This document shows positions 11,935-49,734 of a DNA stretch of 64,000 nucleotides, piece after piece. The stretch's first letter is position 1. Every line of letters begins with the position of its first letter. The notes under the pieces are model-generated. The model made no database searches. It was not told where the DNA came from and worked only from the letters and a program-made list of their open reading frames with translations. This DNA comes from Polyangiales bacterium. GTDB lineage: Bacteria; Myxococcota_A; Polyangia; Polyangiales; Ga0077539. The position numbers and the translations under genes are program-made. The stretch lies in the NCBI GenBank assembly GCA_044229975.1, contig JBGARZ010000005.1:416001-480000 (forward strand), read 5' to 3'.

Positions 11935-14900
11935 ATGACGACACCCTCCATTCCCCTCCGCGTCCAGCTCCTGCGTCTGCGCCTCACCAGCGGGCGCACG
12001 CTGCTGCTCCCCATCGCCGATCCGCGCCACGCCGTGGTCGCCGAGGAGTCCGACGCCCTCCTCGAAGCACAGCTCTTCCTCTCCGAGTGGCTCGCCACCC
12101 AAGCGCCCTCCGTCGTCGGCGGCTTCATCGCCAACCCCAACGCCCGCGTCGAGTACGTGCCCGTCCCCCTCACCCGCGAAGACCTCCCGCGGCGATTCCG
12201 TGAGCCCGTCATCGTCTGCGTCCCCTGCGTGGTTCTGCCCGAAAACAACCGCTCGTGGGTGTTCGTCGCGCCGCTGGAGACCGTCGTCTACGTCGGCCCC
12301 AACGCCTCGCTCGCCGAGACCGTCGGCGCGGAGGTCAGCCGCCTCGTCGACGCCTGGGAACTCCCCCCCGACCGCCGCCTCGACCTCTTCCCCCTCCCCG
12401 GCGCCGAGCTCGTCGCCACCGACCTCGTCGTCGAGCGCCGCCACGGCCGCGGCCCCGACGGCGAAGCCTCGCGCCCCCGCGAGCGCGCCCGCTCCGAAGA
12501 GAAGGCCGCCGCCCTCGAAGCCCTGCGATCCATCGGCAACGCCCTCGACGAGCGCGAGGCGACCACCCTCGCCCACCGCGACGACGCGCTCCGAACGCTC
12601 TCCGCCCTCCTCGACGGCACTCAACGGCAGTCGGTGTTGCTCACGGGCGCGTCGCTCGTGGGTCGCTCGGCGCTGCTGCGCGCCTGGGTCGCCCGGCGCA
12701 AGGCCGACGGTCGCCCGGCGACGGCGTTCGTGACGAGCGGCGCGCAGCTCCTCGCGGGCATGAGCGGCCTCGGTCAGTGGGAAGCCCGCTTGAAGAAGGT
12801 GCTCGACGCCGCCGAGCTGCTCGACGCGGTGCTGGTCTTCGACAACCTGGGCGAGCTGCTCACCGATCGACCGTCGGGCGGGGTCAACCTCGCCGCCGCG
12901 CTACGACCCGCGCTCGAAGAGGGCCGCGTGCGGTTGGTGGGCGAGCTCCGCGACGACCTCGTCGACGCTGGCGAGCGCCACCACGGCAGCTTCCTCGGCA
13001 ACTTCACCCGGCTGCGCGTGGAGCCGCTCACCGCGGCGCAGACCCTCGACGCCCTCCAACAGCGGGCGGCGCAGGAGGCGAAGGCGCAGCGCGACGGTCC
13101 GGCCCTCACGCGTGATGGCGCCGAGACGGTGGTGGACCTCGCGGCGCGCTACATGGCCTACGACGCCTTTCCGGGGAAGGCGTTTCGCCTGCTCGACGAG
13201 CTGCGCGCGGTGGTCGAGAGCGACCGCGACCTCACCACCGCCCACACCCCGGCGATGGACCGCGACCTCGTACAGCGGGCGTTCAGTCGGCAGAGCGGGA
13301 TACCGGCGTTCATCTTGAGGGACGACCTCGCGATGCGGGTGGAGGAGGTCACCGCGTCGCTACAGAAGCGCATCGTGGGACAGACCGCAGCGGTGCGCGC
13401 GATGGCGCAGACCCTCGGTGTGGTGAAGGCCGGGATGCAGCGGGGCGGACGACCGCTCGCGTGTCTGCTCTTCGTCGGTCCGACGGGCGTCGGCAAGACC
13501 GAGCTCGCCCGCGCGACGGCGCACCTGCTGTACGGCAGCGACGAGCGGATGATCCGCTTCGACATGAGCGAGTACACCGACCTCGAAGCGGCCGATCGTC
13601 TCATCCGCGGGGTGCGCGGCGCGGAGGGCCTGCTCACGCGGCGCATCCGCGAGCAGCCCTTCGGCGTGCTGCTGCTCGACGAGGTGGAGAAGGCCCACCC
13701 GGCGGTGTTCGACCTGCTGTTGCAGGTGCTCGGCGAGGGCCGCCTCACCGACGGCCAGGGGCGAACGGCCTACTTCCACAACGCCATCGTGGTGATGACG
13801 AGCAACCTCGGCGCGACGGGCATGCGCGACCCGGTTGGCATCGGGCAGGCGCCCGCGGACATGGGCGCCCACTACCTGCGCGCGGTGGAGTCGACGTTTC
13901 GACCCGAGTTCATCAACCGGCTCGATCGGGTGATTCCCTTCGACGCGCTGGGTGCGGCGGAGGTGCGCGCGGTGGCGACCATGACGCTCACGAAGCTGGC
14001 GCAGCGACGCGGTCTCGACGGCGTGACGCTGACCGTGAGCGACGCGGCCGTCGACCACCTGAGCGCGCGCGGATACTCCAACCGCTACGGCGCGCGGGCG
14101 ATGCGTCGGCACCTCGAAGACCACCTCGTGGCACCCGTCGCGGGCCTCGCCAACGACGCGGTGAACCCCGGCGAGACGCTGCTCGCCGTGCGGGTGTCGC
14201 TGCCGTCGGAGCCGGCGGAGGCACGCGCCGAGGGCTACCGGGACGAGGTCGTGGTGGGCGGCCTGCGGGTGGAGGTGTGGGCGGCGGCGCCACGTGAGGG
14301 CCACGAAGCAGCAGCGCTACGAACGGAGCTGGCGACGCACCGACGCTGGGTCGACGCGGCGCTCAAGCTGCCGCGCATCGACGGCATCCGCAGCCAGGTG
14401 GAGCACCTGCGGGCGCAGCTCTCGTACCGGGCGGCGGGGACAACGACCGGGACGGGTGAGCGCAACGCGTTGCAGCGCGAACACCACCAGTTGGACACGC
14501 ACTGGACGGCGCTCACGCGCTTGCAGCACGAGCTGTGGTCGCTGGAGGAGCTCGGCCTGGAGGGGCACCTCGGTCGCGACGAGGCGAAGGAGCTGCGCGC
14601 CGAAGCGGAGGCGGTGCGCGAGCGCTTCGAGGTGGCGCTGGCCGAGGCGATGCTGTCGTCGGTGGTGGGGCGCAACGGCGTAGTGCTCATGGTCTCGGAG
14701 CTCGACGACACCCGCGGGCTGGAGCCGTGGCTGGAGGGCTACGACGTGGCGTGCGAGGCGCGACGGTGGACCCTCGACGCGCACCTCATCGACATGGCCC
14801 CCGAGCGGGGCGACGAGTGGCCGGCGGAGCGACGGTGGGGGCCGCCGCGCAAGCTGCGGACGGTGCTCGACCTGCTACGCGCGGAGGAGGATCGCGGACC

Positions 14901-15309
14901 GAAGAGCGTGGTGCTGGAGGTGGAGGGTGTGCATTCGGGGGTGCTGCTGGCGCTGGAGCGCGGGCTGCACGTGCGGCGCGAGGGGGACCATCGGTCGGTG
15001 GTCGAGGTGCGGCTCCTCACGCGGGGCCTCGGGCTCGACGACAAGGAGTGGGCGCACGCGGCGCTGGTTCCGCCGATGCCGACGGACTTCGAGGCGCTGG
15101 GCAAGCGGCCCGCGGCGCGCACGACGTGGGTCGACCTGTATGTGCAGACGCCAGGGATGCGGAAGGTGGAGCTGCGCAAGGGCCAGCACGCGCACGAGGT
15201 CATCGAGCGCGTGGCGTGTCAGCACCTGTTGGAGTTGGAGTTCGACCCCGACGCGCAGCCCCTGGAGGAGCTCATGGAAGGCCCGCTCGACGAGGGGAAC
15301 GAGGGGTGA
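11935..15309 (+). CDS. ClpA/B-like double-AAA+ ATPase 1 with C-terminal release-factor-like (PCRF-like) domain
   Basis: D1 is degenerate (GASLVGRS, VFDNL). D2 has GPTGVGKT, FDMSEY, LLDEVEKAH, GRLTD, MTSNLG, FRPEFINRLD and YGAR. Tail contains SVVLEVEG...LALERGLHV. Confidence 0.85.
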   Translation: MTTPSIPLRVQLLRLRLTSGRTLLLPIADPRHAVVAEESDALLEAQLFLSEWLATQAPSVVGGFIANPNARVEYVPVPLTREDLPRRFREPVIVCVPCVVLPENNRSWVFVAPLETVVYVGPNASLAETVGAEVSRLVDAWELPPDRRLDLFPLPGAELVATDLVVERRHGRGPDGEASRPRERARSEEKAAALEALRSIGNALDEREATTLAHRDDALRTLSALLDGTQRQSVLLTGASLVGRSALLRAWVARRKADGRPATAFVTSGAQLLAGMSGLGQWEARLKKVLDAAELLDAVLVFDNLGELLTDRPSGGVNLAAALRPALEEGRVRLVGELRDDLVDAGERHHGSFLGNFTRLRVEPLTAAQTLDALQQRAAQEAKAQRDGPALTRDGAETVVDLAARYMAYDAFPGKAFRLLDELRAVVESDRDLTTAHTPAMDRDLVQRAFSRQSGIPAFILRDDLAMRVEEVTASLQKRIVGQTAAVRAMAQTLGVVKAGMQRGGRPLACLLFVGPTGVGKTELARATAHLLYGSDERMIRFDMSEYTDLEAADRLIRGVRGAEGLLTRRIREQPFGVLLLDEVEKAHPAVFDLLLQVLGEGRLTDGQGRTAYFHNAIVVMTSNLGATGMRDPVGIGQAPADMGAHYLRAVESTFRPEFINRLDRVIPFDALGAAEVRAVATMTLTKLAQRRGLDGVTLTVSDAAVDHLSARGYSNRYGARAMRRHLEDHLVAPVAGLANDAVNPGETLLAVRVSLPSEPAEARAEGYRDEVVVGGLRVEVWAAAPREGHEAAALRTELATHRRWVDAALKLPRIDGIRSQVEHLRAQLSYRAAGTTTGTGERNALQREHHQLDTHWTALTRLQHELWSLEELGLEGHLGRDEAKELRAEAEAVRERFEVALAEAMLSSVVGRNGVVLMVSELDDTRGLEPWLEGYDVACEARRWTLDAHLIDMAPERGDEWPAERRWGPPRKLRTVLDLLRAEEDRGPKSVVLEVEGVHSGVLLALERGLHVRREGDHRSVVEVRLLTRGLGLDDKEWAHAALVPPMPTDFEALGKRPAARTTWVDLYVQTPGMRKVELRKGQHAHEVIERVACQHLLELEFDPDAQPLEELMEGPLDEGNEG

Positions 15310-15451
15310 CGTAGCCCGCTAGCAGACCGGGGTTGGTCGCGTCCCGCGCCTGCACCCCGGCACGCGAGCGGGTCCCGCGAGATGTGGCCCGCGACCGGGC
15401 GCGACGTCGTTCCCCCATTCCGACCCTGGATGACGTTATGGTCCGCGCTCC

Positions 15452-18400
15452 ATGGAGGTACGGCTCACCGTCTATCATGTGCGCGAGGGGCAGCGGGTGC
15501 TGTGGGCCCCGCTCGGCCTCGGCGCGCTCTTCCACCGCTTCGAGGGCGCCCACGAGAACAAGCTCCGCGACCAGCTCTCCGTGCACTACCGCGAGGTGCT
15601 GCGCGAGCTCCCCACGGCCGACGTCGCGCGCTTCGAGCTCTCCCGCGGGGCGCGGCTCACCTCCGTACGCGTCGACCTCACGCTCCAGTCCGAGGGCAAG
15701 CGCCACAAGCGCTCGATGACCGTCCCGCTCGTGCTGCTCTCGCGGTGGGTCGGACCGACGCCGCGCGTGACCGTGGCCTTCCACCCGCTGCGCCAAGGCG
15801 ACTGGTTCGCCTTCCGGCCCGAGCACGGAACGCTCGCCGAACACGCCGCGGGGTGCTTCAGCGAGCTGTGGGCGGGCCTCGATCAGGAGACCCTCGACGG
15901 CCTGCGCCACCGACCGCGGTCGGGGTTGCGGGTGGTCTCCTTCAACGCCGCCACGCGCTCCATCCTCGACACGCTCAAGCCCGAGAGCGCCGACCCGCGC
16001 GGCGAGCGGCCGCCCTCGGAGGCCGAGCTCTCGCAGCGACGAACCGGCTACCGCGTGCTCCCGCGCATCGGCGACAACCTCACCCGCCGCGCCATCGACG
16101 GCGACCTCCCCGTGCCCGAGCACGCCTCGCCCGTGCGCGAACGCCTCCGCGCCCAGGTGAGCGCGTCGCCCCCGCGCAGCGTCGTGCTCATCGGGCCGTC
16201 GGGCTCCGGGCGCACCACCGCGCTGCGCGGCCTCGTGCACGACCTGCTGACGGCCGACGACTTCGGCGCCCATCAAAACGCCGACAAGGTGCGCGCCGTC
16301 TGGCAGGTGAGCGGCACGCGCATCATCGCGGGGATGTCCTTCCTCGGCGACTGGGAGGAGCGCTGCGGCGACGTGCTGACGGACGTTCGCACGCGGCGCG
16401 CGGTGCTCGCCGTGGGCGACCTGCACCAGTGGGGACGCGTCGGCCGGTCGAGGGACAGCGACCGCAACCTGGCGGAGTTCTTCCGGGCGCCGGTGTCGCG
16501 CGGGGAGTGCGTGCTGCTGGGCGAGTGCACGGTCGAGCAGTGGCGGCAGTTGGAGGAGGACGCGCCGGCCTTCGCGGCGGCGTTTACCCGCGTGGCGATG
16601 CCCGAGACGTCGGCCGCGGAGACGATGCGGATGCTGCTCCACGAGTCGCGCTCGCTGGAGCTCACCTACGGCATGCGCATCCCCGCCGAGGGCCTGCGCA
16701 CGCTGCTGGAGGTGGGCGGTCCGCTGTTTCCGCACCGGGCGTTGCCGGGGAGGGTGTTCGACCTCCTGCACGCGGCGCTGCGCGACTGCAACGGGGCCTC
16801 CATGGCGAGCGAGGACGACCTTCCGCTGCAACGCGCCGAGGCGCTCTCGCGGGCGGGCGCGCCGACCTTCAGCGAAGACAGCGCCCTCGACTGGATCTCC
16901 ACGCGCACCGGCTTTCCGCTCGGTCTCCTGCGCACGGACATCCCGCTGTCTGCCAACGACGTGCGCGCGGCGATGACAGACCGGGTGCTGGGACAGCCCG
17001 CCGGGGTCGAGGCCGTGGTCGACCTCGCGATGCGTATTCGCCAGGGGCTGAGCGACCCGAAGCGACCGCTGGCCGTGTACCTGTTCACGGGACCGACGGG
17101 CACCGGCAAGACCGAGCTCGCGCGGGCCATGGCGGCGTTTCTGTACAGCTCCCCGGAGAGGCTGTTGCGCCTCGACATGGGCGAGTACGCGACGGCCGAC
17201 GCGGCGGCGCGGCTCATCGGCGATCGGTGGTCCCCGGAGGGTCTGCTCACCCGACACGCGGCGCAGCAGCCCTTCGGCGTGGTGCTCTTCGACGAGATCG
17301 AGAAGGCCCATCCGCAGGTGCACAACCTGCTGCTCCAGCTCTTCGACGAGGGACGCCTCACCGACGCGGGTGGGGTCACGGCCAACTTCACCCACGCGGT
17401 CATCGTGATGACCTCCAACCTGGGCGCGCGGCGCGAGTCCGTGGTGGGCGTCGGCGTCGATCCGGTGGCGTCGTCGCACGACCACCTGCGCGCGGTGCAG
17501 GAGTTCTTTCCGCCGGAGCTGTTCAACCGCATCGACCGGGTGGTGGCCTTCTCGGCGCTCACGCCGGAGGTCGCGCGGGTGGTCGCGTCGCGGGAGCTCA
17601 CCCGGCTCGCCGCCCGCCCCGGACTGGTCGATCGCGGGGTGTTCGTGTCGTGGACCGACGCGCTGCTCGATCGTGTGGTGAGCGAGGCCTTTCGCGCGGA
17701 GGACGGCGCCCGCTCGCTCAAGCGCTACCTCGAAGACCGCGTCGGATCGGCGCTCACCGACCACCTCGTGCGAGAACCGCGGGCCGACCTGACGCTCCTG
17801 CGCGTGGACGTGGGTGACGCGCCGGGCAGCTTCACGATGAACGCGCGAGCGCTGCGCGAGGCCGAGCCGTTGGCGGCGCGGTATCCGTTGGAGGAGCTCG
17901 CGGAGGCCGACCGCGCGACGCTGGCGACGAGGGTGCGCCGGGCGTTGGTGGTGCTGGAGTCGGCGATGGGCTCGACGGACTTCGAGGAGCTGTCGCGGAA
18001 GATCCACGAGCGGGTGGAGGCGCACCGGGCGGGCGACCGCGCGGCGAGCGACTCCGCGTTTCACCTGGACGCGTTGCGCGCGCACGGCGACGCGCTGCAC
18101 GAGCGGCTCACGACGCTGGCGCGAAGGGTGTCCGAGGCGACGGACTGGGAGCTCGCGGAGGTCGACGCGGAGGGACGGCTCACCTACGGGGTGGACCAGC
18201 TCCCGGTGCGGGCCGAGCTGCTGGCGGCGATCGCGGAGGTGGCGGCGCTCACGCGAGCATTGCGAGAGGTGGACGACCCGACGCAGCACGCGGTGATGAT
18301 CACGCTGAGCCCGCTGGAGGGCGTCGGCAGCAGCATGGTGGGGCTCATCAACGCGCTGGCGTACGTGTACAGCCGGGCGCGCGGAAGGGTCGAAGCGAGC

Positions 18401-18775
18401 GGGGCGGACTCGGTGCGCGGGCAGCGGATCGCGCTGAAGGTGGTGGGGCTGTCGGTGCGGTCGTTCTTCGAGCACGAGGAGGGGGTGCACCTGTGGCACA
18501 CGCCCGACGGGCCGCCGATGATCGCGGTGGTGCGGGTGCGTCCGGCGCTGGCGGGCGAGACCCCGGAAGACGCGCTCGCGACGCTGGACCGCGACTTCGA
18601 TCCGGCGCTGCGGGTGGTGCGATCGATCCGCTACGACCCGACGCGGCGACCGGGCCCGCTGACGCTGGAGGACTACGTGATGGGCACCACCCGCGCGGTG
18701 AGCGCATCGCGCGTGACGGACCCGCTGCCCGCCCTCTGGATGGCCCGCATGGCGCGCGAGGAGGAGGCGTCGTGA
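15452..18775 (+). CDS. ClpA/B-like double-AAA+ ATPase 2 with C-terminal release-factor-like domain
   Basis: D1 GPSGSGRT / AVGDL. D2 GPTGTGKT, FDEIEKAH, GRLTD, PELFNRID and GAR. Tail IALKVVG...FEHEEGVHLW...VVRSIRY...EDYVMG. Confidence 0.85.
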   Translation: MEVRLTVYHVREGQRVLWAPLGLGALFHRFEGAHENKLRDQLSVHYREVLRELPTADVARFELSRGARLTSVRVDLTLQSEGKRHKRSMTVPLVLLSRWVGPTPRVTVAFHPLRQGDWFAFRPEHGTLAEHAAGCFSELWAGLDQETLDGLRHRPRSGLRVVSFNAATRSILDTLKPESADPRGERPPSEAELSQRRTGYRVLPRIGDNLTRRAIDGDLPVPEHASPVRERLRAQVSASPPRSVVLIGPSGSGRTTALRGLVHDLLTADDFGAHQNADKVRAVWQVSGTRIIAGMSFLGDWEERCGDVLTDVRTRRAVLAVGDLHQWGRVGRSRDSDRNLAEFFRAPVSRGECVLLGECTVEQWRQLEEDAPAFAAAFTRVAMPETSAAETMRMLLHESRSLELTYGMRIPAEGLRTLLEVGGPLFPHRALPGRVFDLLHAALRDCNGASMASEDDLPLQRAEALSRAGAPTFSEDSALDWISTRTGFPLGLLRTDIPLSANDVRAAMTDRVLGQPAGVEAVVDLAMRIRQGLSDPKRPLAVYLFTGPTGTGKTELARAMAAFLYSSPERLLRLDMGEYATADAAARLIGDRWSPEGLLTRHAAQQPFGVVLFDEIEKAHPQVHNLLLQLFDEGRLTDAGGVTANFTHAVIVMTSNLGARRESVVGVGVDPVASSHDHLRAVQEFFPPELFNRIDRVVAFSALTPEVARVVASRELTRLAARPGLVDRGVFVSWTDALLDRVVSEAFRAEDGARSLKRYLEDRVGSALTDHLVREPRADLTLLRVDVGDAPGSFTMNARALREAEPLAARYPLEELAEADRATLATRVRRALVVLESAMGSTDFEELSRKIHERVEAHRAGDRAASDSAFHLDALRAHGDALHERLTTLARRVSEATDWELAEVDAEGRLTYGVDQLPVRAELLAAIAEVAALTRALREVDDPTQHAVMITLSPLEGVGSSMVGLINALAYVYSRARGRVEASGADSVRGQRIALKVVGLSVRSFFEHEEGVHLWHTPDGPPMIAVVRVRPALAGETPEDALATLDRDFDPALRVVRSIRYDPTRRPGPLTLEDYVMGTTRAVSASRVTDPLPALWMARMAREEEAS

Positions 18776-21045
18776 GCGCGAAGCCGGGCTGCCGGGTGTA
18801 CTTCGTCCCGCACGAGGGCGGGCTCGTGAGCGGGACCCTCATCGGGATGCTCGGGCCCTTCGAGGAGCCGCCGAGCGCCATCGGGCGCAGCGGCGACGAG
18901 GTGCTCAAGCAGTTGGAGGTGCTGCTCCAGCGGGCCATCGCGCACAACCCGGGGGTGCTCGACCGGTACCTGTGGGACGTCCCGTTTGCGACGCGCGAGG
19001 TGACCGTCGACGTGCACCCGCAGGTCGCCAAGGAGAAGCGCATCGTCATCGGGGCGGGCGAGATTCCACTGCGGCTCACCTACGCCTGGAGCGCCCTCAA
19101 GCGCGGCGGGTATCGCGTGATGCTGCCGCGCTTCGGGTGGTCGTTCGTGGTGGAGCGGCTGGAGATCGCCCCGGAGGTGTTGCGCCACGCGGTGAGCACG
19201 GTGCTACTCGGGCAGAGCCCCGGCGCGCTGATGACCTTTCAGCGCCACGGTGACGAGTGGGTGAGCGAGTGGACCCCGAGGGTCATCGACCCCGACCTCG
19301 ACGAGGAGTCTGGAGCAGCGCTCGCGAGGGAGTTTCCGACGGTGACCGCCGTGGCCGACGAGTGGGTCGAGCGGGTGGCGCGCCGACGGTTGACGATGCC
19401 CGTGGGCGACGACCCCACGCTGGCCCAGCTCGCCGCGATCACGTCACGACAGCCGATGCCCTCGGTGCTGCTGGTGGGTCCGACGGGCGTGGGCAAGACC
19501 ACGCTGGTGCGTCGGCTCGCGCGGCACCTCCTCATCGAGCGGCGGGCGCACCCCGACCGGCACGTCGCGCGGCTCTGGTCGACCTCGGCCACGCGGCTCA
19601 TCGCAGGCATGACCTACGTGGGCATGTGGCAGGAGCGCTGCCTCTCCCTCGTCAAGGAACTCTCCCACGAAGGCGACCTCCTCTTCGTCGACCGGCTCGT
19701 GCCGCTGCTCCAACCGCAGCCCGACGGCGGGTCCATCGGCGAGGTGCTGCTACCCGCCGCGCGCGAGGGTCTCATCTCCGTCGTAGCGGAGTGCACCCGC
19801 GCCGAGCTGGAGGCGTGTCGTCGTCGCTTCGGCGGAGCGCTGGAGGTCTTCCAGGTGGTGCACGTCGAGGAGCCCGAGGCCGCGGCGATGCTGCGCTTCG
19901 TCCCGGTGTACGCGCAGCGCAAGCTGCCCACCTACGCGCTCCCGCCCTCGTCGGTGCGGAGGCTCACCACGCACCTCGCCGCGCTCCAACGCGACGCGGC
20001 GTTTCCGGGCAAGGCGGTGCGCTTCCTCGACTGGATCGCCGCCGCCCACGACCCGACGGACACCTCCGCGCACACGCTGTCGCCGCGGGACGTGTCGTCG
20101 CGCTTCGCGAAGTTCTCGGGCATCCCCGAGGAGCTCATCGCCGACGAGCACGCCGTCACACCCGAAGGGCTCGCTGCAACACTGCAACGCTCCGTCATCG
20201 GACAGGACCCGGCGTGTCAGTCGGCCGCCCGCGTGCTCGCTCGCTTGAAGGCGGGGCTCAACGACCCCGAGCGACCAGTGGGGACGCTGCTCTTCCTGGG
20301 GCCGACGGGTGTGGGCAAGACCGAGCTCGCGCGGGCGATGGCGACGTACCTCTTCGGCGACCCGGCGCGGATGATCCGTCTCGACATGAGCGAGTACATG
20401 TTCGCGGGGTCGGGGCAGCGCATGCTGGCGGTGGGACAGGGCTCGCAGAGCCTCGCGACGAAGGTGCGCGAGCGACCATTGTCGTTGGTGCTCTTCGACG
20501 AGATCGAGAAGGCCCACCCGGAGGTCTTCGACCTGTTGTTGGGCATGCTCGGCGAGGGACGCCTCACGGACTCCTTCGGGACGAGCGTCGACTGCCGGAT
20601 GACGGTGGTGGTGATGACGTCCAACCTCGGGGTGAGCGAGTCGCGCGCGGTGGGCTTCGGCGATGCGGGCGGCGGCGACAGCGCGATGCGCGCGGCGCGG
20701 CGACACTTCCGACCGGAGTTCTTCAACCGGCTCGACCAGGTGATCGGGTTCAACACGCTGACGCCGGGGGACGTGCTTCGCATCGTCGACCTGGAGCTGA
20801 CTCGCGCCGAGGGTCGCGCGGGCCTCCAGCGGCGGCGCGTGAAGCTGTCGGTCGATGCGGCGGCGCGCGAAGAGCTCGCGCGGCTGGGCTGGCATCCGAC
20901 GCGGGGCGCGCGACCGTTGCAGCGGGTGATCGAGGAGCGGGTGATCGCCCCGGTGGCGGCCCACCTCGCGGCCAATCCGGGGTTGCACGACACGGTGCTC
21001 CAGGTGGACGCCCGCGGCGTGGTGACGGGACGAGGTGACGCGTGA
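18772..21045 (+). CDS. ClpA/B-like double-AAA+ ATPase 3 (no C-terminal extension)
   Basis: GTG start overlaps the upstream TGA (GTGA) and follows gaggagg. D1 GPTGVGKT / FVDRL. D2 GPTGVGKT, FDEIEKAH, VGF loop, FRPEFFNRLD and GARPL. Confidence 0.85.
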   Translation: MSAKPGCRVYFVPHEGGLVSGTLIGMLGPFEEPPSAIGRSGDEVLKQLEVLLQRAIAHNPGVLDRYLWDVPFATREVTVDVHPQVAKEKRIVIGAGEIPLRLTYAWSALKRGGYRVMLPRFGWSFVVERLEIAPEVLRHAVSTVLLGQSPGALMTFQRHGDEWVSEWTPRVIDPDLDEESGAALAREFPTVTAVADEWVERVARRRLTMPVGDDPTLAQLAAITSRQPMPSVLLVGPTGVGKTTLVRRLARHLLIERRAHPDRHVARLWSTSATRLIAGMTYVGMWQERCLSLVKELSHEGDLLFVDRLVPLLQPQPDGGSIGEVLLPAAREGLISVVAECTRAELEACRRRFGGALEVFQVVHVEEPEAAAMLRFVPVYAQRKLPTYALPPSSVRRLTTHLAALQRDAAFPGKAVRFLDWIAAAHDPTDTSAHTLSPRDVSSRFAKFSGIPEELIADEHAVTPEGLAATLQRSVIGQDPACQSAARVLARLKAGLNDPERPVGTLLFLGPTGVGKTELARAMATYLFGDPARMIRLDMSEYMFAGSGQRMLAVGQGSQSLATKVRERPLSLVLFDEIEKAHPEVFDLLLGMLGEGRLTDSFGTSVDCRMTVVVMTSNLGVSESRAVGFGDAGGGDSAMRAARRHFRPEFFNRLDQVIGFNTLTPGDVLRIVDLELTRAEGRAGLQRRRVKLSVDAAAREELARLGWHPTRGARPLQRVIEERVIAPVAAHLAANPGLHDTVLQVDARGVVTGRGDA

Positions 21046-23297
21046 AGCGGTGGGTAGCGGCGCTGCTGGTGTTTCTCACGGGCGGCGCGGCGCTCATCTA
21101 CGAGCTGGCGTGGACGCGCTGGCTCACGCTGACGCTGGGCGCGAGCGCGCGGAGCCTCGCGGTGGTGACCGCGAGCACGATGCTGGGCTTCGGCGTGGGC
21201 GCGGGGTTGCTCGGCGCGCGCATCGACCGGACGTCGCGTCCGCTGCGGATGTACGGGCTGCTGGAGATTGCCATCGGCGTGAGCGCGGCGATGGTGACGG
21301 CGGTGCTGCGGGCGGCCCCGATGGCGCACTGGAGCGCCGACCTGCCGCACTGGGCCGTCGCGCTGGTGGTGCTGGTGCTGGTGGGGATTCCGACGGCGTT
21401 CATGGGGGTGACCATCCCGGCGCTGGTGGCGCACCTCGGGCGCGGTGACGCCGCCACCACCCGCGGCGCCTTCGGAACGCTCTACGCCGCCAACACCGCC
21501 GGCGCCGTACTGGGAACGCTCGCCGCCGGCTTCGTTCTCATCGAGGCGCTCGGCTACACGGGTGCCTCGGCCATCGGCATCGGGCTCAACCTGCTGGTGG
21601 GCGCCGTCGCGGTCGCGAGCGATCGCGGGGATGCACCCGCCGCGACGACCGAAGCGCCCGTCGAAGAGGAGTCACCCGCGGCGGCCTACGACCCGAAGGT
21701 GGCGCGGGCGGCGTTGATGGCGGCGACCGTGTCGGGCTTCGGCGTGATGGCCCACGAGGTCATCTCGTCGCGGCTGCTGGTCTACGGGTTCTTCGCGACG
21801 ACGCACGCCATCGCCATCATCCTGGCGGTGTTTCTCGGCGGCCTCTCGCTGGGCGCGCGCATCATCGCGGGGCCGATGCGCCGCGGCACCGTCGGCGTGG
21901 TGCACCTGGGCGGAGCGCTGCTGGCATCGGGTGCGTTGTCGCTCGCGCTGGCGCCGTCGCTCACGCAGACCGCCGCGCTGGTCGACGCCCTCCGCGGGAC
22001 GCGCCCCGAGTGGTCGGTGCGGCTGGGCATCGAGGCGCTGGTGGCGTCGGCCGTGCTGCTGCCCGCTGCGGTGGTGATGGGGCTGGTGTTTCCGCTGGCG
22101 GCGGGCCTCTACGCGAGCGCGAAGAGCCCGGGCGCGACGCTGGGGCGCGCGGTGCTGAGCAACACCATGGCGGGCGTGGTCGGGGCGCTGGGCGCGGGCT
22201 TCGTGCTGGTTCCGTTGTTTGGCGTGCGCGGCTCCATCGTGGCGGTGGCGCTGGTGCAGGCCGCGTCGGGCGCGTGGATCGTCGCCACCCACGCGACGGT
22301 GAAGCGGGTCGCGGCGATGGGTGTCGGCGTGGCGATCGCGGTCGCGGTGGGCGGCGCGCTGTGGGCGCAGAAGCCACGCACGGGCGGCGTCCCGGGCGAG
22401 ACGACGCTGGTGGCGCAGCACGTCGTGGGTCACGAAGAGGACTACCGGGTGCGCTGCTACCGGGAGGGACCGACGGCCATCACGGAGGTGCTGGAGCACA
22501 TGCCATCGGGGCGGCGCGACGTGGTCATCGACGGCTTCGTGGCAGCGGGCAACGACGGCAGCGCTGGGTACATGGACCTGATGGGACGCGTCCCGATGAC
22601 GCTGCACCCGGCTCCGCGAAGGGCGCTGGTGATCTGCTTCGGGACGGGCGCGACGTCGCGGGCGGTGGCGTCGTTCCCGGAGGCATCGGTCGACATCGTG
22701 GACATCAACCCCGACGTGTTCGCGTGCGCGCCGTCGTTTCCGGCCAACGTCGCGCTGCTGCGGCGGGCGCACACGCACGTCGAGGACGGTCGGGCCTTCC
22801 TGCGGCGCTCGTCGGGCGCCCGCTACGACGTCATCACGCAGGAGCCGATGCCGCCGCACTTCGCGGGCGTCGCGGCGCTCTATTCGGAGGAGTACTACCG
22901 CCTCGCGCGGGCCCGCCTCGCCGACGACGGGGTGATGGTGCAGTGGCTGCCGATGCACCTGACGGCGCCCGACGACGCGCGCCAGATCGCAGCGGCAGCG
23001 CTCAGGGTGTTTCCCGAGACGTGGCTGGCCATCGCGCCGGGGGATTTCACCGGGCTGCTGGTGTCGTCGCCGCGGCCGATCCCAGCCGCGCGGCGGGCCG
23101 TGGTGGAGGCCGAGCTCAGGACGGCCTTCGCGCTCGACCCGGCGCACCTGCGGCGCTTCATCGACGGCGCGGGGCCCACGACGGACGACCGGCCGTCGCT
23201 CGAATACAACGGCGTCGACCGCGTGCTCGATCGGTTCAGGAGCCCGGCGCGGATGCTCCGGTACAACCTCCGTCGGGTGGTGGCGGCGGGGCGGTAG
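21042..23297 (+). CDS. Fused multi-TM / spermidine-synthase-like (SAM/dcSAM-dependent) protein
   Basis: Many TM helices (GAALIYELAW, LYAANTAG), then ALVICFGTGAT, VDINP, EDGRAFL, YDVITQEP, LYSEEYY and QWLP. Confidence 0.85.
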   Translation: MKRWVAALLVFLTGGAALIYELAWTRWLTLTLGASARSLAVVTASTMLGFGVGAGLLGARIDRTSRPLRMYGLLEIAIGVSAAMVTAVLRAAPMAHWSADLPHWAVALVVLVLVGIPTAFMGVTIPALVAHLGRGDAATTRGAFGTLYAANTAGAVLGTLAAGFVLIEALGYTGASAIGIGLNLLVGAVAVASDRGDAPAATTEAPVEEESPAAAYDPKVARAALMAATVSGFGVMAHEVISSRLLVYGFFATTHAIAIILAVFLGGLSLGARIIAGPMRRGTVGVVHLGGALLASGALSLALAPSLTQTAALVDALRGTRPEWSVRLGIEALVASAVLLPAAVVMGLVFPLAAGLYASAKSPGATLGRAVLSNTMAGVVGALGAGFVLVPLFGVRGSIVAVALVQAASGAWIVATHATVKRVAAMGVGVAIAVAVGGALWAQKPRTGGVPGETTLVAQHVVGHEEDYRVRCYREGPTAITEVLEHMPSGRRDVVIDGFVAAGNDGSAGYMDLMGRVPMTLHPAPRRALVICFGTGATSRAVASFPEASVDIVDINPDVFACAPSFPANVALLRRAHTHVEDGRAFLRRSSGARYDVITQEPMPPHFAGVAALYSEEYYRLARARLADDGVMVQWLPMHLTAPDDARQIAAAALRVFPETWLAIAPGDFTGLLVSSPRPIPAARRAVVEAELRTAFALDPAHLRRFIDGAGPTTDDRPSLEYNGVDRVLDRFRSPARMLRYNLRRVVAAGR

Positions 23298-42517: not shown

Positions 42518-43533
42518 TGTTGCAGCTCGCCAACGAGACGCCGCTCCGCGCGGTGATGGCCCTGATGCCCGACCGCCGCGGGGTGGAGTGCCTCGTGCTG
42601 ATGGTGAAGGCGACGTTCTCCCTCGACGAGGCGCCGCGCCTGCTCGGCGAGCAGCTCCCGTTGCAGGTGGGTGACGCCTGGACGGGGCAGCCCGGCGCGA
42701 GCTCGCTGCTCGCACCCAACGAGTTCCACCCGCCGAAGCCCTCCACCGACGTGCTGCTCCAGGGCCACGCGCAGGCCGCCGATCAACGGCCCAGCACTTC
42801 CGTCGACGTCGCAGTGACGGTGGGCTCGCTGCATCGGAGGCTGCGCGTCACGGGCGATCGTGAGTTCACGGGGCAGGTCGACGGGCGGGTCGCCACGGCG
42901 CCGCAACCCTTCCGAACGATGCTCCTGTGCTGGGAGCGGGCGTACGGTGGGCGCAGCGTCGACGGTGCGACCTTCGAGGCGCGCAACCCCGTGGGCAAGG
43001 GCTTCATCCCGCACGACCCCCAACAGGCGCCGTCGTTTCGCGGGAGCCCGGTGCCCAACCTGGAAGACCCGGCCGACCCGTTTCAGGGGCCCGGCCGCCC
43101 GATGAAGCCCGCGTGCTACGCGCCGATCGCGCCCACCTGGGCGCCACGCTCGCGCTACGTCGGCACCTGCGACGACGCGTGGGACCGCACGCGCGCCCCG
43201 TTTCTGCCCGACGACTTTGACGACCGCCACTACCAGTGTGCCCCCGACGGACTCGTCACGGCGCAGCCCCTCCGCGGCGCCGAGCCCATCGTCCTCGAGG
43301 GCGTCTCCCCTCGCGGAACACTCACCTCCCGCGTCCCCCGGGTTGGCTTCGACGCCTGGGCCACGATCGCGGGCTCGAAGGTCGCGCTCACGCTCTCCCT
43401 CGACACGCTCTCCCTCGACGCCGACCACCATCGGATGACCGTGATCTGGCGGTGTCAGCACCTCGTCGACAAGCGCGCGCTGTCGGTCGAGACCGTGCGC
43501 CTGGCGTTTCTTCCTGGAGGCGATGTGTCGTGA
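42517..43533 (+). CDS. DUF2169 T6SS effector adaptor
   Basis: VKATF, PPKPSTDVLLQGHA, WERAYGG, NPVGKG, PNLEDP, R.RYVGT.D..W and LPDDFD; TGATG coupling to the upstream gene. Confidence 0.9.
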   Translation: MLQLANETPLRAVMALMPDRRGVECLVLMVKATFSLDEAPRLLGEQLPLQVGDAWTGQPGASSLLAPNEFHPPKPSTDVLLQGHAQAADQRPSTSVDVAVTVGSLHRRLRVTGDREFTGQVDGRVATAPQPFRTMLLCWERAYGGRSVDGATFEARNPVGKGFIPHDPQQAPSFRGSPVPNLEDPADPFQGPGRPMKPACYAPIAPTWAPRSRYVGTCDDAWDRTRAPFLPDDFDDRHYQCAPDGLVTAQPLRGAEPIVLEGVSPRGTLTSRVPRVGFDAWATIAGSKVALTLSLDTLSLDADHHRMTVIWRCQHLVDKRALSVETVRLAFLPGGDVS

Positions 43534-44549
43534 GCGTCTCCATCACCCGCACCGGGATGATCTCCCCGGTCGGAACCTCCACCCTGCAGACCACCACCTC
43601 CGTGCTCGCGGGCGTCAGCCGCCTGCGCGAGACCTCCCTGCGCGACGGCCGCTGGCGCCCCCTCCGCATGGGTCTGCTCCCCGACGACGCGCTCCCGCCC
43701 ATCGCCCCGGCGCTCGCGGCGCGCGGCGACCTGTCGACCCGCTGCGCCCGGATGGTGCGCCTCGCCGGCGCCGCCCTCGCCGAGTGCGCCGAAGGCACAG
43801 GAGCACTCGACGCGGTGCCGATGTTTCTGGCGATTCCCGAAATCGCGCCGGGGCGGTCGTCGTCGCCCGACGCGCGCTTCTTCGACGACCTCGCGGCGCA
43901 GTCGGGCGTGACCTTCGCGGCCTCGTCGAGCGCGGCCTTCCCGCACGGCCGGGCGGCGGGATTCCACGCCCTCGCCGCCGCGGTGGACGCGATCGCCGCG
44001 GGCGCTCCGCGCGCGCTGGTGGGGGGCGTGGACAGCTACCTCGACCCGTTGCTCCTCGGGTGGCTCGACGCCGAGGAGCGACTGCTCACCGAAGGGCGAC
44101 CGGTGGGCTTCATGCCCGGAGAGGGCGCGGCGTTTCTGCTGCTCTCGCGGTCACCGGGCGCGGTGGTCGTCGACGCGGTCGGTCTCGGCACGGAGCCGGG
44201 TCATCGCGGCAGCGAAGAGGCCTTCGTCGGCGACGGGCTCACGGCGGCGTTTCGCGCGGTGCTGCCCGACGGCGCGGACGTGGGGACGGTGTTCGCGGGG
44301 ATGAACGGCGAGCCCATCGACGCGCGGGCCTGGGGCATCGCGGCGCGGCGGCACCACCGGGGACTGCGACCCGACGCGGCGCTGCACCACCCGGTGGAAC
44401 ACACGGGCGACCCCGGCGCGGCGCTGGGCGTGATGATGCTGGCCATGGCGGCCTCGGGATTGTCCCGGAAGAGGTTCGCGGGGCCGTGTCTGTTGTGGGC
44501 GTGTTCGGACGGGGCGGCGTGCGGCGCGGCCCGCGTCTCATCAGCGTAG
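43530..44549 (+). CDS. Ketosynthase/thiolase-like T6SS accessory protein (PRK06147-like)
   Basis: GMISPVG, LVGGVDS, GFMPGEGAAFLLL, GDGLT, MNGE and GDPGAA; canonical neighbour of DUF2169. Confidence 0.8.
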   Translation: MSVSITRTGMISPVGTSTLQTTTSVLAGVSRLRETSLRDGRWRPLRMGLLPDDALPPIAPALAARGDLSTRCARMVRLAGAALAECAEGTGALDAVPMFLAIPEIAPGRSSSPDARFFDDLAAQSGVTFAASSSAAFPHGRAAGFHALAAAVDAIAAGAPRALVGGVDSYLDPLLLGWLDAEERLLTEGRPVGFMPGEGAAFLLLSRSPGAVVVDAVGLGTEPGHRGSEEAFVGDGLTAAFRAVLPDGADVGTVFAGMNGEPIDARAWGIAARRHHRGLRPDAALHHPVEHTGDPGAALGVMMLAMAASGLSRKRFAGPCLLWACSDGAACGAARVSSA

Positions 44550-44566
44550 GAAGGAGTGCAGGCGAG

Positions 44567-44950
44567 ATGGCATCGAAGACCTTCGTCAACGGTCGCGGGG
44601 TGGCCCACGCATCGAGCAACGGGATGAGCATCGCGTTTCCCGACGTGTGCTTGACGCCGAGCCCGGCGGGGCCGGTGCCGATCCCGTATCCCAACATCGG
44701 GAAGTCATCGGACACGTCGGGCGGGCCGCAGACGGTCACCGTCGATGGTGGTGCGATGCCCATGGTGAAGGGCGCCACCTACTCACGCAGCAGCGGCGAC
44801 GAGGCGGGCACCGCGGGCGGCGTGGCGAGCGGCTGCAACATGGGGGCGTCGGAGTTCATGCTGTATTCGTTCGACGTGAAGATGGACGGCAACAACGTGT
44901 GCCGGCTGGGCGACATGCTCTTCCACAACCGCAAGAACACCCTGGGCTGA
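44567..44950 (+). CDS. Stand-alone DUF4150 (PAAR-like) spike-tip protein
   Basis: FPDVCLTP.P..PVPIPYPN, SSGDEAG, SFDVKMDG..VCRLGD and HN. Stops after 127 aa with no toxin domain. Confidence 0.92.
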   Translation: MASKTFVNGRGVAHASSNGMSIAFPDVCLTPSPAGPVPIPYPNIGKSSDTSGGPQTVTVDGGAMPMVKGATYSRSSGDEAGTAGGVASGCNMGASEFMLYSFDVKMDGNNVCRLGDMLFHNRKNTLG

Positions 44951-47553: not shown

Positions 47554-49734
47554 CTACCCATTGATCTTCACCTGAGCCCCCTTCACCTCGACGTTGCCGC
47601 CGGTGCTCACGGTGATCTTGTCGCCGTTGAGCTCCACCTTCCCCCCGGCGCCCGTCTTCAGGGTGATCTTGTCCGTCGTCACCTCCACGCTCGTGTCGCC
47701 CACCTTCAGGGTGAACTTCTTCGGCACTTCGAGGACGACGTTCTCCGGGTCGACCAGCAGCTTCATCCCGTCGTCGCCGACCACCACGCCGAGCACCTTC
47801 GGCACCATCACCTGCATCTCGTCAGGGATCATCTGCACCGACGCGCCGCTGCCGCCGCCCACCTCCACCACCGCCGCCTCGTCGGCCGTAAACCGGTGGC
47901 TCTCGTTGGCGTGCTCGCTGTTGGACCCCTCGACCACCACGCTGCGGTTGCCCAGCACCTGCGTGAGGTCGTTGCCGTCCGTCGTGCGGTGGCGGTTCTT
48001 CTTCACCACCTGCGACTCCGAGCCGTCCACCGTCACGCTCCGGTCGCGCCCCACCGTCGTCGCGCTGTCGCGCCCGACGCCCGTCGTCTCGTCGTGGTCG
48101 ACCCGGCGCTTGTGGTCGTGCCGCACGTGCTCGCGCAGGTCGCGCTGCGCCCGCAGGTACACCTCCTCGCGGTCGGCGAGGTCCTCGAAGCGCAGCTCGT
48201 TGAAGCCGCCCGTGTGGGGCGAGCTCTGCGTGCGAATCACCGACCGCGTGCGGTGCTCCGGCAGCGCGAAGGGCGCCTCGTTGGACTTGTTGTAGAGGCA
48301 CCCCGCCACGAAGGGCCGGTCGACGTCGCCGTCGAAGAACTGCACCACCACCTCCATCCCCACCCGCGGCGTGAAGAGCGTCCCCCACGATCCGCCGGCC
48401 CACCCCTGCACCACCCGCAGCCAGCACGACGGGTGCGGGTGCTCCTGCTCGCCCACGCGGCGCTCGGGCTCGTCCCAGTGGAAGCGCACCAGCACCCGAC
48501 CGTAGTGGTCGGTCGCGATCTCCTCCTCGGACCCCTCCGGCCGCGTCACGGTGGCCGACTGGGGCGCCAACATCCGGGGCTTCGCGCGCACCGCGGGTCG
48601 CTGCACCACCCTCTCCGGCGCGGCCTCGAAGTGGTTGACGTAGCGGTCCTCGCCCGACCCCTCCGCGCTCCCGCCGTGCGTCACCTCCGGCGCGCTCGCG
48701 AGGTGCACCACCCGCGTCAACAACACCCGCACCGGCGACGACCCCGGCCCCGGCTCCTGCAGCTCCACCAGCGCCCCCGGCATGAAGCCCACCACCACCC
48801 CGGTGCCCCGCAGTCCCTGCGACCGCGCCTGCAACGCATCCTGGCGCATCGTGGCGAAGCGCTTCATCTGCGCGGCCCGCCCGTAGACGTGCTCGCCGCC
48901 GTCCCACGCGCCCAGCACGAAGCGCGACGGGTACTCCGTCATCACGAGGTCGGGCTCCACCGTCGGGTGATGCGCCTTCAAGGCCGACTGCGGATGCGTG
49001 AAGTCGTAGTCCCGGCCAAGCCAGGCGCCCGTGGTCAGCTCGCGGCGCTCCTCCAGCCGCGCCACGCGCTCGACCTCCGCCGTCGCCGCCCCGCCGCCGA
49101 TCGGAACCGCCCGCCCGTCCAGCGTCGCCACCGTGTCGAGGGCCGCGAGCTCACCACCATCGAAGAGCACCAGCTCCTCGTCGTCGTCGCCTTGCGCGAA
49201 GGCGTAGTGAAGGCCCTCCTCGGAGAGCAGCCGCGCGATGAACTCCAGGTCCGTCTCGCCGAACTGCACGCAGTACTCGCGCTCCGCGGGCCGCTCCACG
49301 CCGACCGGCTCCCGCCAGCGCCCCTCGTACAGCCCCGCGTCGTCGAGCACGGCCCTGACGACGGTGAGCGCGTCGACGTCCTGGTAGATGCGGTGCTCCG
49401 AGCGTCGCCCGAGCAACCACAGCGACGGCACCACCACCAGCTCATCGACCCGGTGGCCCGCCGTCAGTCCGCGCTGCGCGATCGCCACCACCACGCCGTG
49501 CACACGACGCTCGTGGTCGCCGCGCGCCAGGGTGAGCGTCGACCGGCAGCCCAGGAGGTCGTCCAGCGCGGGCGCCTCGTCGAGCATCCACGCGAGCTCG
49601 ACCACGCACTCGTAGGGCGTCGAGAGGGCCTCCGTCAGTTGCACGCGGGCCACCGCTGCGCGCGCGGTGACACCCTTGACCTCGAAGGACAGAACCACCT
49701 CGGGCAACACGCCTCCCGCCCCGTCAGCGCCCAT
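47554..49734 (-). CDS. vgrG: Type VI secretion spike protein VgrG
   Basis: EALSTPY, RIYQ, EYCVQFGETDLEFIARLLSEEG, DHYGRVLVRFHWD, SCWLRVVQGWAG, PRVGMEVVVQF.DGD.DRP, NELRFED and gp5-like repeats. Confidence 0.95.
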   Translation of the reverse strand: MGADGAGGVLPEVVLSFEVKGVTARAAVARVQLTEALSTPYECVVELAWMLDEAPALDDLLGCRSTLTLARGDHERRVHGVVVAIAQRGLTAGHRVDELVVVPSLWLLGRRSEHRIYQDVDALTVVRAVLDDAGLYEGRWREPVGVERPAEREYCVQFGETDLEFIARLLSEEGLHYAFAQGDDDEELVLFDGGELAALDTVATLDGRAVPIGGGAATAEVERVARLEERRELTTGAWLGRDYDFTHPQSALKAHHPTVEPDLVMTEYPSRFVLGAWDGGEHVYGRAAQMKRFATMRQDALQARSQGLRGTGVVVGFMPGALVELQEPGPGSSPVRVLLTRVVHLASAPEVTHGGSAEGSGEDRYVNHFEAAPERVVQRPAVRAKPRMLAPQSATVTRPEGSEEEIATDHYGRVLVRFHWDEPERRVGEQEHPHPSCWLRVVQGWAGGSWGTLFTPRVGMEVVVQFFDGDVDRPFVAGCLYNKSNEAPFALPEHRTRSVIRTQSSPHTGGFNELRFEDLADREEVYLRAQRDLREHVRHDHKRRVDHDETTGVGRDSATTVGRDRSVTVDGSESQVVKKNRHRTTDGNDLTQVLGNRSVVVEGSNSEHANESHRFTADEAAVVEVGGGSGASVQMIPDEMQVMVPKVLGVVVGDDGMKLLVDPENVVLEVPKKFTLKVGDTSVEVTTDKITLKTGAGGKVELNGDKITVSTGGNVEVKGAQVKING

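Follow-up and report, generated by a model that had tools for sequence, protein, structure and literature searches.

Introduction

The closest described relatives of the proteins considered here are the class-I release factor RF2 (PrfB; Pfam PCRF, PF03462, plus RF-1, PF00472) and the AAA+ ATPases ClpA, ClpB and ClpC. Elements of both are joined in a 64,000-nucleotide stretch from a Polyangiales bacterium (contig JBGARZ010000005.1, positions 416,001 to 480,000; hereafter the window). There, three tandem genes, encoding ATPases 1, 2 and 3, each specify a ClpA/B-type double AAA+ core, and ATPases 1 and 2 possess about 330 additional residues beyond the D2-small domain. We present evidence from models and fold searches that each of these tails is composed of release factor (RF) domains 1 and 2/4 without domain 3, and we consider what a ring bearing such arms might do.

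Several other systems invite comparison. In archaea and eukaryotes, Dom34/Pelota with Rli1/ABCE1, and Vms1 with Cdc48, act on stalled ribosomes as pairs of an RF paralog and an ATPase (PMC6514570), and by analogy they may resemble the fusions described here. Dom34 is a dead rescue factor, to which the tails may be likened in the logic of what has been lost (PMC6514570). These are, however, separate proteins with the unrelated aeRF1 fold and ATPases of other classes. PrfH (RFH), associated with RtcB, is also an RF paralog with altered domain content and a patchy distribution, tied to damaged ribosomes (PMC6514570). Known PrfH chains match the cores of the tails with Z of about 8 (VIA-align), but PrfH has retained the catalytic glutamine, is without domain 1 and adjoins RtcB, and the tails are the reverse; among the matches listed, no conserved RtcB-like neighbour was found at the 33 loci compared. 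Lastly, chloroplast PrfB3 resembles the tails in being an RF2 derivative without SPF and GGQ (PMC5897788), and a PrfB3 cluster appears among proteins weakly similar to tail 2 (score 0.80). Unlike the tails it stands alone, has no ATPase and stabilises petB mRNA by binding (PMC5897788).

Results

Release-factor fold of the tails

The layout of the three genes is given below. The RF-derived parts span approximately 14290-15270 in ATPase 1 and 17910-18760 in ATPase 2, with boundaries taken from model offsets.

11935..15309, plus strand: ATPase 1, 1124 residues; N-domain, D1, D2 and RF-derived tail
11935..12444, plus strand: ATPase 1 N-domain, approximately residues 1-170; a homologue of the N-domain in single-gene proteins of the Chloroflexota type (hhalign 97.8%)
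14290..14658, plus strand: ATPase 1 RF domain 1, a three-helix bundle; model helices 2-124, aligned with E. coli RF2, beginning at its residue 27
14659..15273, plus strand: ATPase 1 RF domain 2/4 core, with a short linker in place of domain 3 and a tight turn as recognition loop
15452..18775, plus strand: ATPase 2, 1107 residues; architecture as in ATPase 1
17912..18265, plus strand: ATPase 2 RF domain 1-like helical bundle; model helices 25-142, VIA-align to RF2 over model residues 27-308
18266..18772, plus strand: ATPase 2 RF domain 2/4 core without domain 3, from the AlphaFold model and fold searches
18772..21045, plus strand: ATPase 3, 757 residues from a GTG start that overlaps the ATPase 2 stop; N-domain and AAA core, without RF tail

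A first-pass annotation, made from the sequence without database searches, had proposed on the basis of short peptide motifs that both tails are catalytically dead class-I RF modules. All ten of the quoted motifs (10/10) were located by eye, in the order given, in the translations of 11935-15309 and 15452-18775, and neither GGQ nor SPF is present in tail 1 or tail 2, as had been claimed. The comparison with RF structures that it had recommended as a check returned class-I release factors as the top matches of both tails. The AlphaFold models are confident, with a predicted local distance difference test score (pLDDT) of 92 for tail 1 and 89 for tail 2. In Foldseek at E<=0.001, every listed row is a class-I release factor (31 matches for tail 1 and 48 for tail 2), the best E values being 7.8e-8 and 8.6e-9, respectively. 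When 48,161 chains were compared with VIA-align, release factors ranked first for both tails: tail 1 aligned to RF2 with Z 13.3 and to RF1 domains 2/4 with Z 11.2 (root-mean-square deviation [rmsd] 3.4 A over 149 residues), and tail 2 reached Z 12.5 (rmsd 3.2 A, 144 residues). Across both tails the domain 2/4 superpositions lie at about 3.2-3.5 A over 144-149 residues. The TM-scores of the tails to whole release factors are low, approximately 0.2-0.4, presumably because domain 3 is missing and domain 1 is placed differently.

At the level of sequence, a tail-1 profile built from 17 sequences found E. coli RF2 as its top match in the PDB (E 3e-7, RF2 residues 27-165 and 177-204). This alignment places on RF2 domain 1 the helical stretch that the first-pass annotation had called a coiled coil preceding an RF-like domain; the domain stands, and the coiled coil is not a separate element, being RF domain 1 itself. 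Single-sequence Pfam searches detected PCRF in none of four fragments of the window's tails and passed in only 3 of 28 relatives' tails, and recognition of the RF match therefore needed profiles and folds. Two results count against RF identity: the ATPase 2 tail profile taken alone gave no RF match in the PDB, and its hhalign probability to RF2 or RF1 is below 2%. The tail 1 and tail 2 profiles align to one another at 91% (hhalign). As a whole, these comparisons of profiles and modelled structures show that the tails share with RF2 the fold and order of domains 1 and 2/4. They differ from it in being fused behind a double AAA+ module and in lacking domain 3 with GGQ, the SPF/PxT loop and the glycine-rich alpha5 loop, so that the proposal of dead class-I RF modules is upheld.

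Three other explanations were rejected. Chance similarity of motifs is ruled out, the fold matches being too consistent; an assembly chimera is ruled out by the same fusion in more than 100 distinct proteins; and an active release factor is ruled out by the absence of GGQ.

Proposed erosion and origin of the tails

The motif names used here and the roles attached to them (Walker A/B, IGF, the alpha5 loop, FW, DxRTG) are those in general use, except where a paper is cited. In 38 RF1/RF2 sequences the span containing domain 3 has a median length of 123 residues; the median is approximately 98 in 12 type-4 paralogs, 60 in 11 ATPase 2-type tails and 52 in 64 ATPase 1-type tails, and it lies within 52-60 in 70 Chloroflexota-type tails. 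GGQ occurs within this span in 1 of 157 tails, and in neither of the window's, and in 3 of 157 the domain-2 strand is succeeded by an SPF/PxT-like motif. A consensus comparison shows that the glycine-rich loop ahead of helix alpha5 has been replaced in the tails, and both tail models have short strand turns at the site of the recognition loop. Since domain 3 with its GGQ and the codon-reading loops are gone, peptide release and stop-codon reading would be impossible by the known mechanism (PMC6742477).

Other RF2-type features persist in part of the family. The domain-1 FW motif is found in 12/12 type-4 and 29/70 Chloroflexota-type tails, and the domain-4 DxRTG-type motif in 9/12 and 35/70, respectively. 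In the window's tail classes, class-specific inserts occupy the places where RF2-type motifs were lost. The residues that are invariant among tails are mostly glycines, together with one glutamate and one arginine. The net charge of domain 2 gave no clear signal.

A fourth paralog lies on the same contig about 7 kb before the window (G000:C20:406612-409863, minus strand; L001:8610-11825). It is without an N-domain, passes the PCRF cut-off (E 5e-11), scores far higher to RF2 than to RF1, and aligns to RF2 over nearly its full length, including a shortened domain 3 with an altered GGQ loop. With this GGQ-dead remnant it is apparently an intermediate in the erosion of the tail, to judge from its alignment. 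A protein named from Cognaticolwellia (P0236) is among its relatives.

In a tree of 86 AAA cores, 73 family rows fall on one side and 13 canonical Clps on the other (SH-like approximate likelihood-ratio test [SH-aLRT] 100). Rooting on the canonical Clps, type 4 splits first and ATPase 3 is nested inside the family; this was a quick tree, with the ATPase 1 and Chloroflexota classes subsampled to 14 each. Because ATPase 3 falls inside the fusion family, its tail was likely lost secondarily. The intermediate paralog and the branching order together fit a history that we infer to have comprised a single fusion of Clp with RF2, erosion of domain 3, triplication and loss of the tail from ATPase 3.

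The basal family members match RF2 far better than RF1 (TIGR00020 E 8e-19 against 1e-4 for RF1 models; hhalign 99.4% against 82.6%), whereas tail 1 of the window scores no better to RF2 than to RF1 (87.7 versus 93.0%). A tree of the tails with RF1 and RF2 has long branches and is uninformative on an RF1-versus-RF2 origin; the branch of one RF1 row (L103) is very long, probably on account of a wrong frame. Scores and motifs are thus what point to RF2 as the probable source.

Two near-identical 197-codon frames with GGQ, G000:C4:10899-11492 and G000:C34:314716-315309, start in the middle of RF domain 2. They are PrfH-like or frameshifted RF paralogs, and the C4 copy has a weak PCRF piece upstream in another frame.

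Distribution of the three ATPases

The close relatives of the window proteins are from Myxococcota, and RF-tailed relatives were found in Myxococcota, Chloroflexota and Bacteroidota. Strong matches to tail 1 occur in 12 and to tail 2 in 13 of 301 genomes of the phylum; 12 genomes are shared, and in 11 the matches are adjacent. Of the 25 Myxococcota loci with ATPase 1, 11 have a contiguous trio and four have ATPases 1 and 2 only; the remainder end early, several at contig edges, or have other genes intervening. All three ATPases are close together at one Bacteroidota locus. In two Bacteroidota-type genomes, three paralogs of family size are retained although dispersed over different contigs, and in two Chloroflexota genomes there is one such paralog each; these assignments were made by score and length of frame. 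Because the tails co-occur (12/13 genomes) and the tail-less ATPase usually follows, ATPases 1, 2 and 3 likely form one mixed ring. The simplest interpretation of these sequence patterns would be that an ancestral homo-oligomer became a hetero-oligomer.

In one congener, ATPases 1 and 2 are separated by an insert (L002:13531-22341) in which a pair of lipoxygenase-like genes and one kinase/AAA/cyclase-like gene were identified by eye; L003-L006 have open reading frames homologous to this insert in the same place. At G175:C119:4025-6455, less than 1 kb separates the tail-1 and tail-2 matches, which leaves no room for an intact ATPase 2, possibly as a result of a deletion or an assembly fault.

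The AAA+ core and the N-domains

The first-pass annotation had treated the ATPases as unfoldases, and this part of its proposal is not supported by the motifs. Of 184 family proteins, 1 has the Walker B glutamate of D1 and 183 lack it; among the canonical paralogs in this genome, 4 of 5 have it. The arginine finger of D1 has mostly disappeared, and in the window's ATPases 1 and 2 an arginine replaces the Walker A lysine of D1; D1 of ATPase 1 is predicted to be hydrolysis-dead. In the class consensus, D2 has intact Walker A and B motifs, both sensors and the arginine finger. The GYVG pore motif of D2 is missing from all 180 of the family proteins matched (of 184) versus present in 2 of 3 matched canonical proteins (of 5), and the pore loop is mostly 3-6 residues shorter than the canonical one. 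ATPase 2 as a class retains an aromatic residue in both pore loops; its D2-loop aromatic is found in 13/13, so some grip may be possible. The D1 pore aromatic is kept in 11/14 ATPase 2 and 12/12 ATPase 3 proteins. An IGF-type loop follows D2 sensor 1 in 32/68, 8/14, 9/12, 12/12, 59/70 and 6/6 proteins, class by class, as judged by a loose pattern without a chance control; in the window it is clear in ATPase 3 only. The genome has two ClpP genes.

The family thus has the tandem D1-D2 AAA+ modules and D2-small domain that characterise ClpA, ClpB and ClpC, along with ClpA-like spacing, the D2 catalytic motifs and what may be a partly kept IGF-type loop. It is unlike them in having an apparently HicB-like N-domain in place of Clp_N, in having lost the D1 glutamate and GYVG, and in forming a separate branch of the core tree. 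Pfam detects no Clp_N repeats in the window ATPases, and the NCBIfam Clp models score approximately 280-310 bits, all far below their cut-offs of 993-1232. The family belongs neither with the release factors nor with the standard ClpA/B/C proteins. Because the parts normally used to thread proteins are absent, the ring probably does not work as an ordinary unfolding motor. ClpA depends on active D2 loops above all when it unfolds stable substrates, and unfolded substrates are still degraded when the GYVG tyrosines are removed (PMC8666677).

All three N-domains of the window align to that of the Chloroflexota type at 96-98% (hhalign). A Chloroflexota-type N-domain (P0227) is above cut-off for PF21748 (UPF0150) and weak for PF15919 (HicB_lk_antitox), and through this relative the N-domains appear to be HicB-like. 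A direct Pfam match to UPF0150/HicB was obtained for 1 of 43 N-domains (E 0.005) and for none of the window's, and the N-domain profile found nothing usable in the PDB or the ESM Atlas.

Elsewhere in the genome, G000:C27:78781-81165 encodes a Clp paralog outside the fusion family, on a very long branch and with a degenerate D1 Walker B.

Discussion

The function that we tentatively favour, as the likeliest of several readings and at somewhat less than even confidence, is that of a mixed-ring remodeller that docks on ribosomes, is blind to stop codons and does not thread proteins. ATPases 1, 2 and 3 would assemble into a Clp-type ring bearing RF-shaped arms, and these would dock the ring on ribosomes with a stalled, stop-less or damaged A site, leaving the stop codon unread and the peptide unreleased. 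ATP hydrolysis in the D2 tier would then drive a change of shape instead of ordinary threading, and as output the ribosome might be remodelled or held, or the IGF-type loop, which may be partly kept, might mediate a transfer to ClpP. Both the ribosome as target and these outputs are inferred. In release factors, domain 1 lies at the A-site periphery, against L11 (PMC6742477, PMC3677378). Since the fusion point is domain 1, the ring could remain outside the ribosome while the arms reach in.

What favours docking is that the whole RF body, domains 1 and 2/4, has been retained and is confidently folded in relatives across phyla, that the losses are limited to catalysis and codon reading, parts that a codon-blind factor would not need, and that the basal members retain RF2-type motifs. 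In addition, approximately 14 of 140 ATPase 1-type proteins carry a second translation-derived piece, a helix pair resembling the L7/L12 C-terminal domain. It is found at the ATPase 1 C-termini of L010, L011 and L013 and in P0026, P0040, P0135 and others, and Pfam PF00542 reaches or passes its cut-off in three ATPase 1-type proteins. In L12, the corresponding part contacts RF3 (PMC3677378).

Other observations weigh against docking. The ATPase 1 of the window has no L12-like piece, and there are four L12-like matches elsewhere in the genome. Neither the FW nor the DxRTG-type motif occurs in any of the 64 ATPase 1-type or 11 ATPase 2-type tails, and the glycine-rich alpha5 loop is lost in both of the window's classes. 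Among five congeners, domain 2/4 of tail 1 is 55-61% identical, with a nonsynonymous divergence (dN) of 0.31-0.37; domains 2 and 4 of the true RF2 of the same congeners are 88-93% identical, with dN 0.04-0.06. Tail-1 domain 2/4 thus changes about six times faster than RF2 in the same genomes, a rate difficult to reconcile with a binding site that hardly varies; dN and synonymous divergence (dS) were obtained by simple counting, with dS compressed by the high G+C content. The contiguous trio is limited to 11 of the 25 Myxococcota loci, and the spread is patchy (5/8 congeners and 11/24 genomes of the family, some of them incomplete). Clustering of neighbours at 33 loci revealed, among the matches listed, nothing conserved across genera besides the ATPases and no conserved translation, RNA-repair or defence genes. 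Finally, an RF2 copy deprived of SPF and GGQ can take up mRNA binding instead, as PrfB3 demonstrates (PMC5897788).

Several of these observations would be expected if the arms worked off the ribosome, as fast-changing recognition modules for some other protein or RNA, own or foreign; we regard this tentatively as nearly as likely as ribosome docking. The ring would then be a sensor, as of stress or conflict, switched by binding to signal or to recruit ClpP. No part of ATPase 1 evolves faster than domain 2/4, RF2-type motifs have given way to class-specific inserts in the window's classes, the distribution is patchy, the N-domains appear HicB-like, and a dead D1 with no GYVG loop would suit a switch; a precedent is plant PrfB3, an RF2 derivative devoid of SPF and GGQ that attaches to the 3' untranslated region of petB (PMC5897788). 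On the other hand, among the matches listed the neighbourhood has no conserved partner, effector or defence gene, dN is below dS in every region and therefore gives no sign of positive selection, and the L12-like additions point to translation. If instead the tail were an internal arm, structural or regulatory (a stand-in for the ClpB/ClpC middle domain), a linker between subunits or a slowly decaying appendage, then its absence from ATPase 3, the stepwise shortening of the domain-3 span (123 to approximately 98 to approximately 55 residues) and the structural look of the invariant glycines, glutamate and arginine would follow readily. We consider this unlikely: two of the three subunits retain the entire fold, in different phyla and in open frames, and dN is below dS.

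Slightly less probable again is the version that follows the first-pass annotation, in which a working ClpA-like unfoldase sits in the A site and draws out nascent chains or pieces of the ribosome, whether for rescue or for shut-off in defence. The intact D2 Walker A and B, sensor 1, arginine finger and sensor 2, the D1 pore aromatics of ATPases 2 (11/14) and 3 (12/12), the apparently partly kept IGF-type loops, the two ClpP genes, and the persistence of degradation of unfolded substrates by ClpA lacking GYVG tyrosines (PMC8666677) are compatible with it. Against it stand the absence of GYVG (0/180) from a loop mostly 3-6 residues shorter and the near-complete loss of the D1 Walker B glutamate (1/184); active D2 loops are most important to ClpA for unfolding stable substrates (PMC8666677). 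As for defence, PADLOC 2.0 gave only partial D2 matches to generic AAA models and no full-length system match, and with no conserved neighbours among the matches listed this suggestion is unsupported.

The ribosome-docking remodeller can be extended, more speculatively and with considerable doubt, to an independently built bacterial counterpart of the eukaryotic pairing of a dead RF with an ATPase for rescue. By this analogy, RF2-shaped arms would find empty or damaged A sites, a non-threading D2 motor would remodel or park the ribosome, and the putative HicB-like domains and ClpP would clear the causal RNase toxins or the stuck chains.

A literature search found no description of a Clp-RF fusion family; subscription papers were mostly outside its coverage. 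The word "Clp" is absent from the main text of a survey of release factors (PMC6514570), and neither AAA nor ClpB occurs in the available text of a ribosome-rescue review. Automatic annotation does see the architecture: Joint Genome Institute (JGI) names join ClpA with release factor, and an ESM Atlas cluster joins ClpB_D2-small with PCRF. This is a real Clp subfamily with dead RF2-derived arms, and one that is apparently undescribed. If the arms bind ribosomes, they would give bacteria with large genomes a new means of controlling the quality of translation or of shutting it off. If they do not, the family would still present a release factor dismantled stepwise, with living intermediates, and Clp proteins without threading parts. 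The single-gene forms, namely the Chloroflexota type and the paralog beside the window, would allow these questions to be tested with one protein.

Other features of the window

A promoter scan returned 0 sites, and there are five terminator-like sites, compared with 2.3 expected by chance. A membrane protein with a spermidine-synthase-like domain is encoded at 21042-23297, its start overlapping the ATPase 3 stop; neighbour clustering gave it no conserved position beside the trio at other loci. Farther along the window, PAAR-like (43523-44950) and VgrG-like (47554-49734) genes suggest a type VI secretion accessory cluster.

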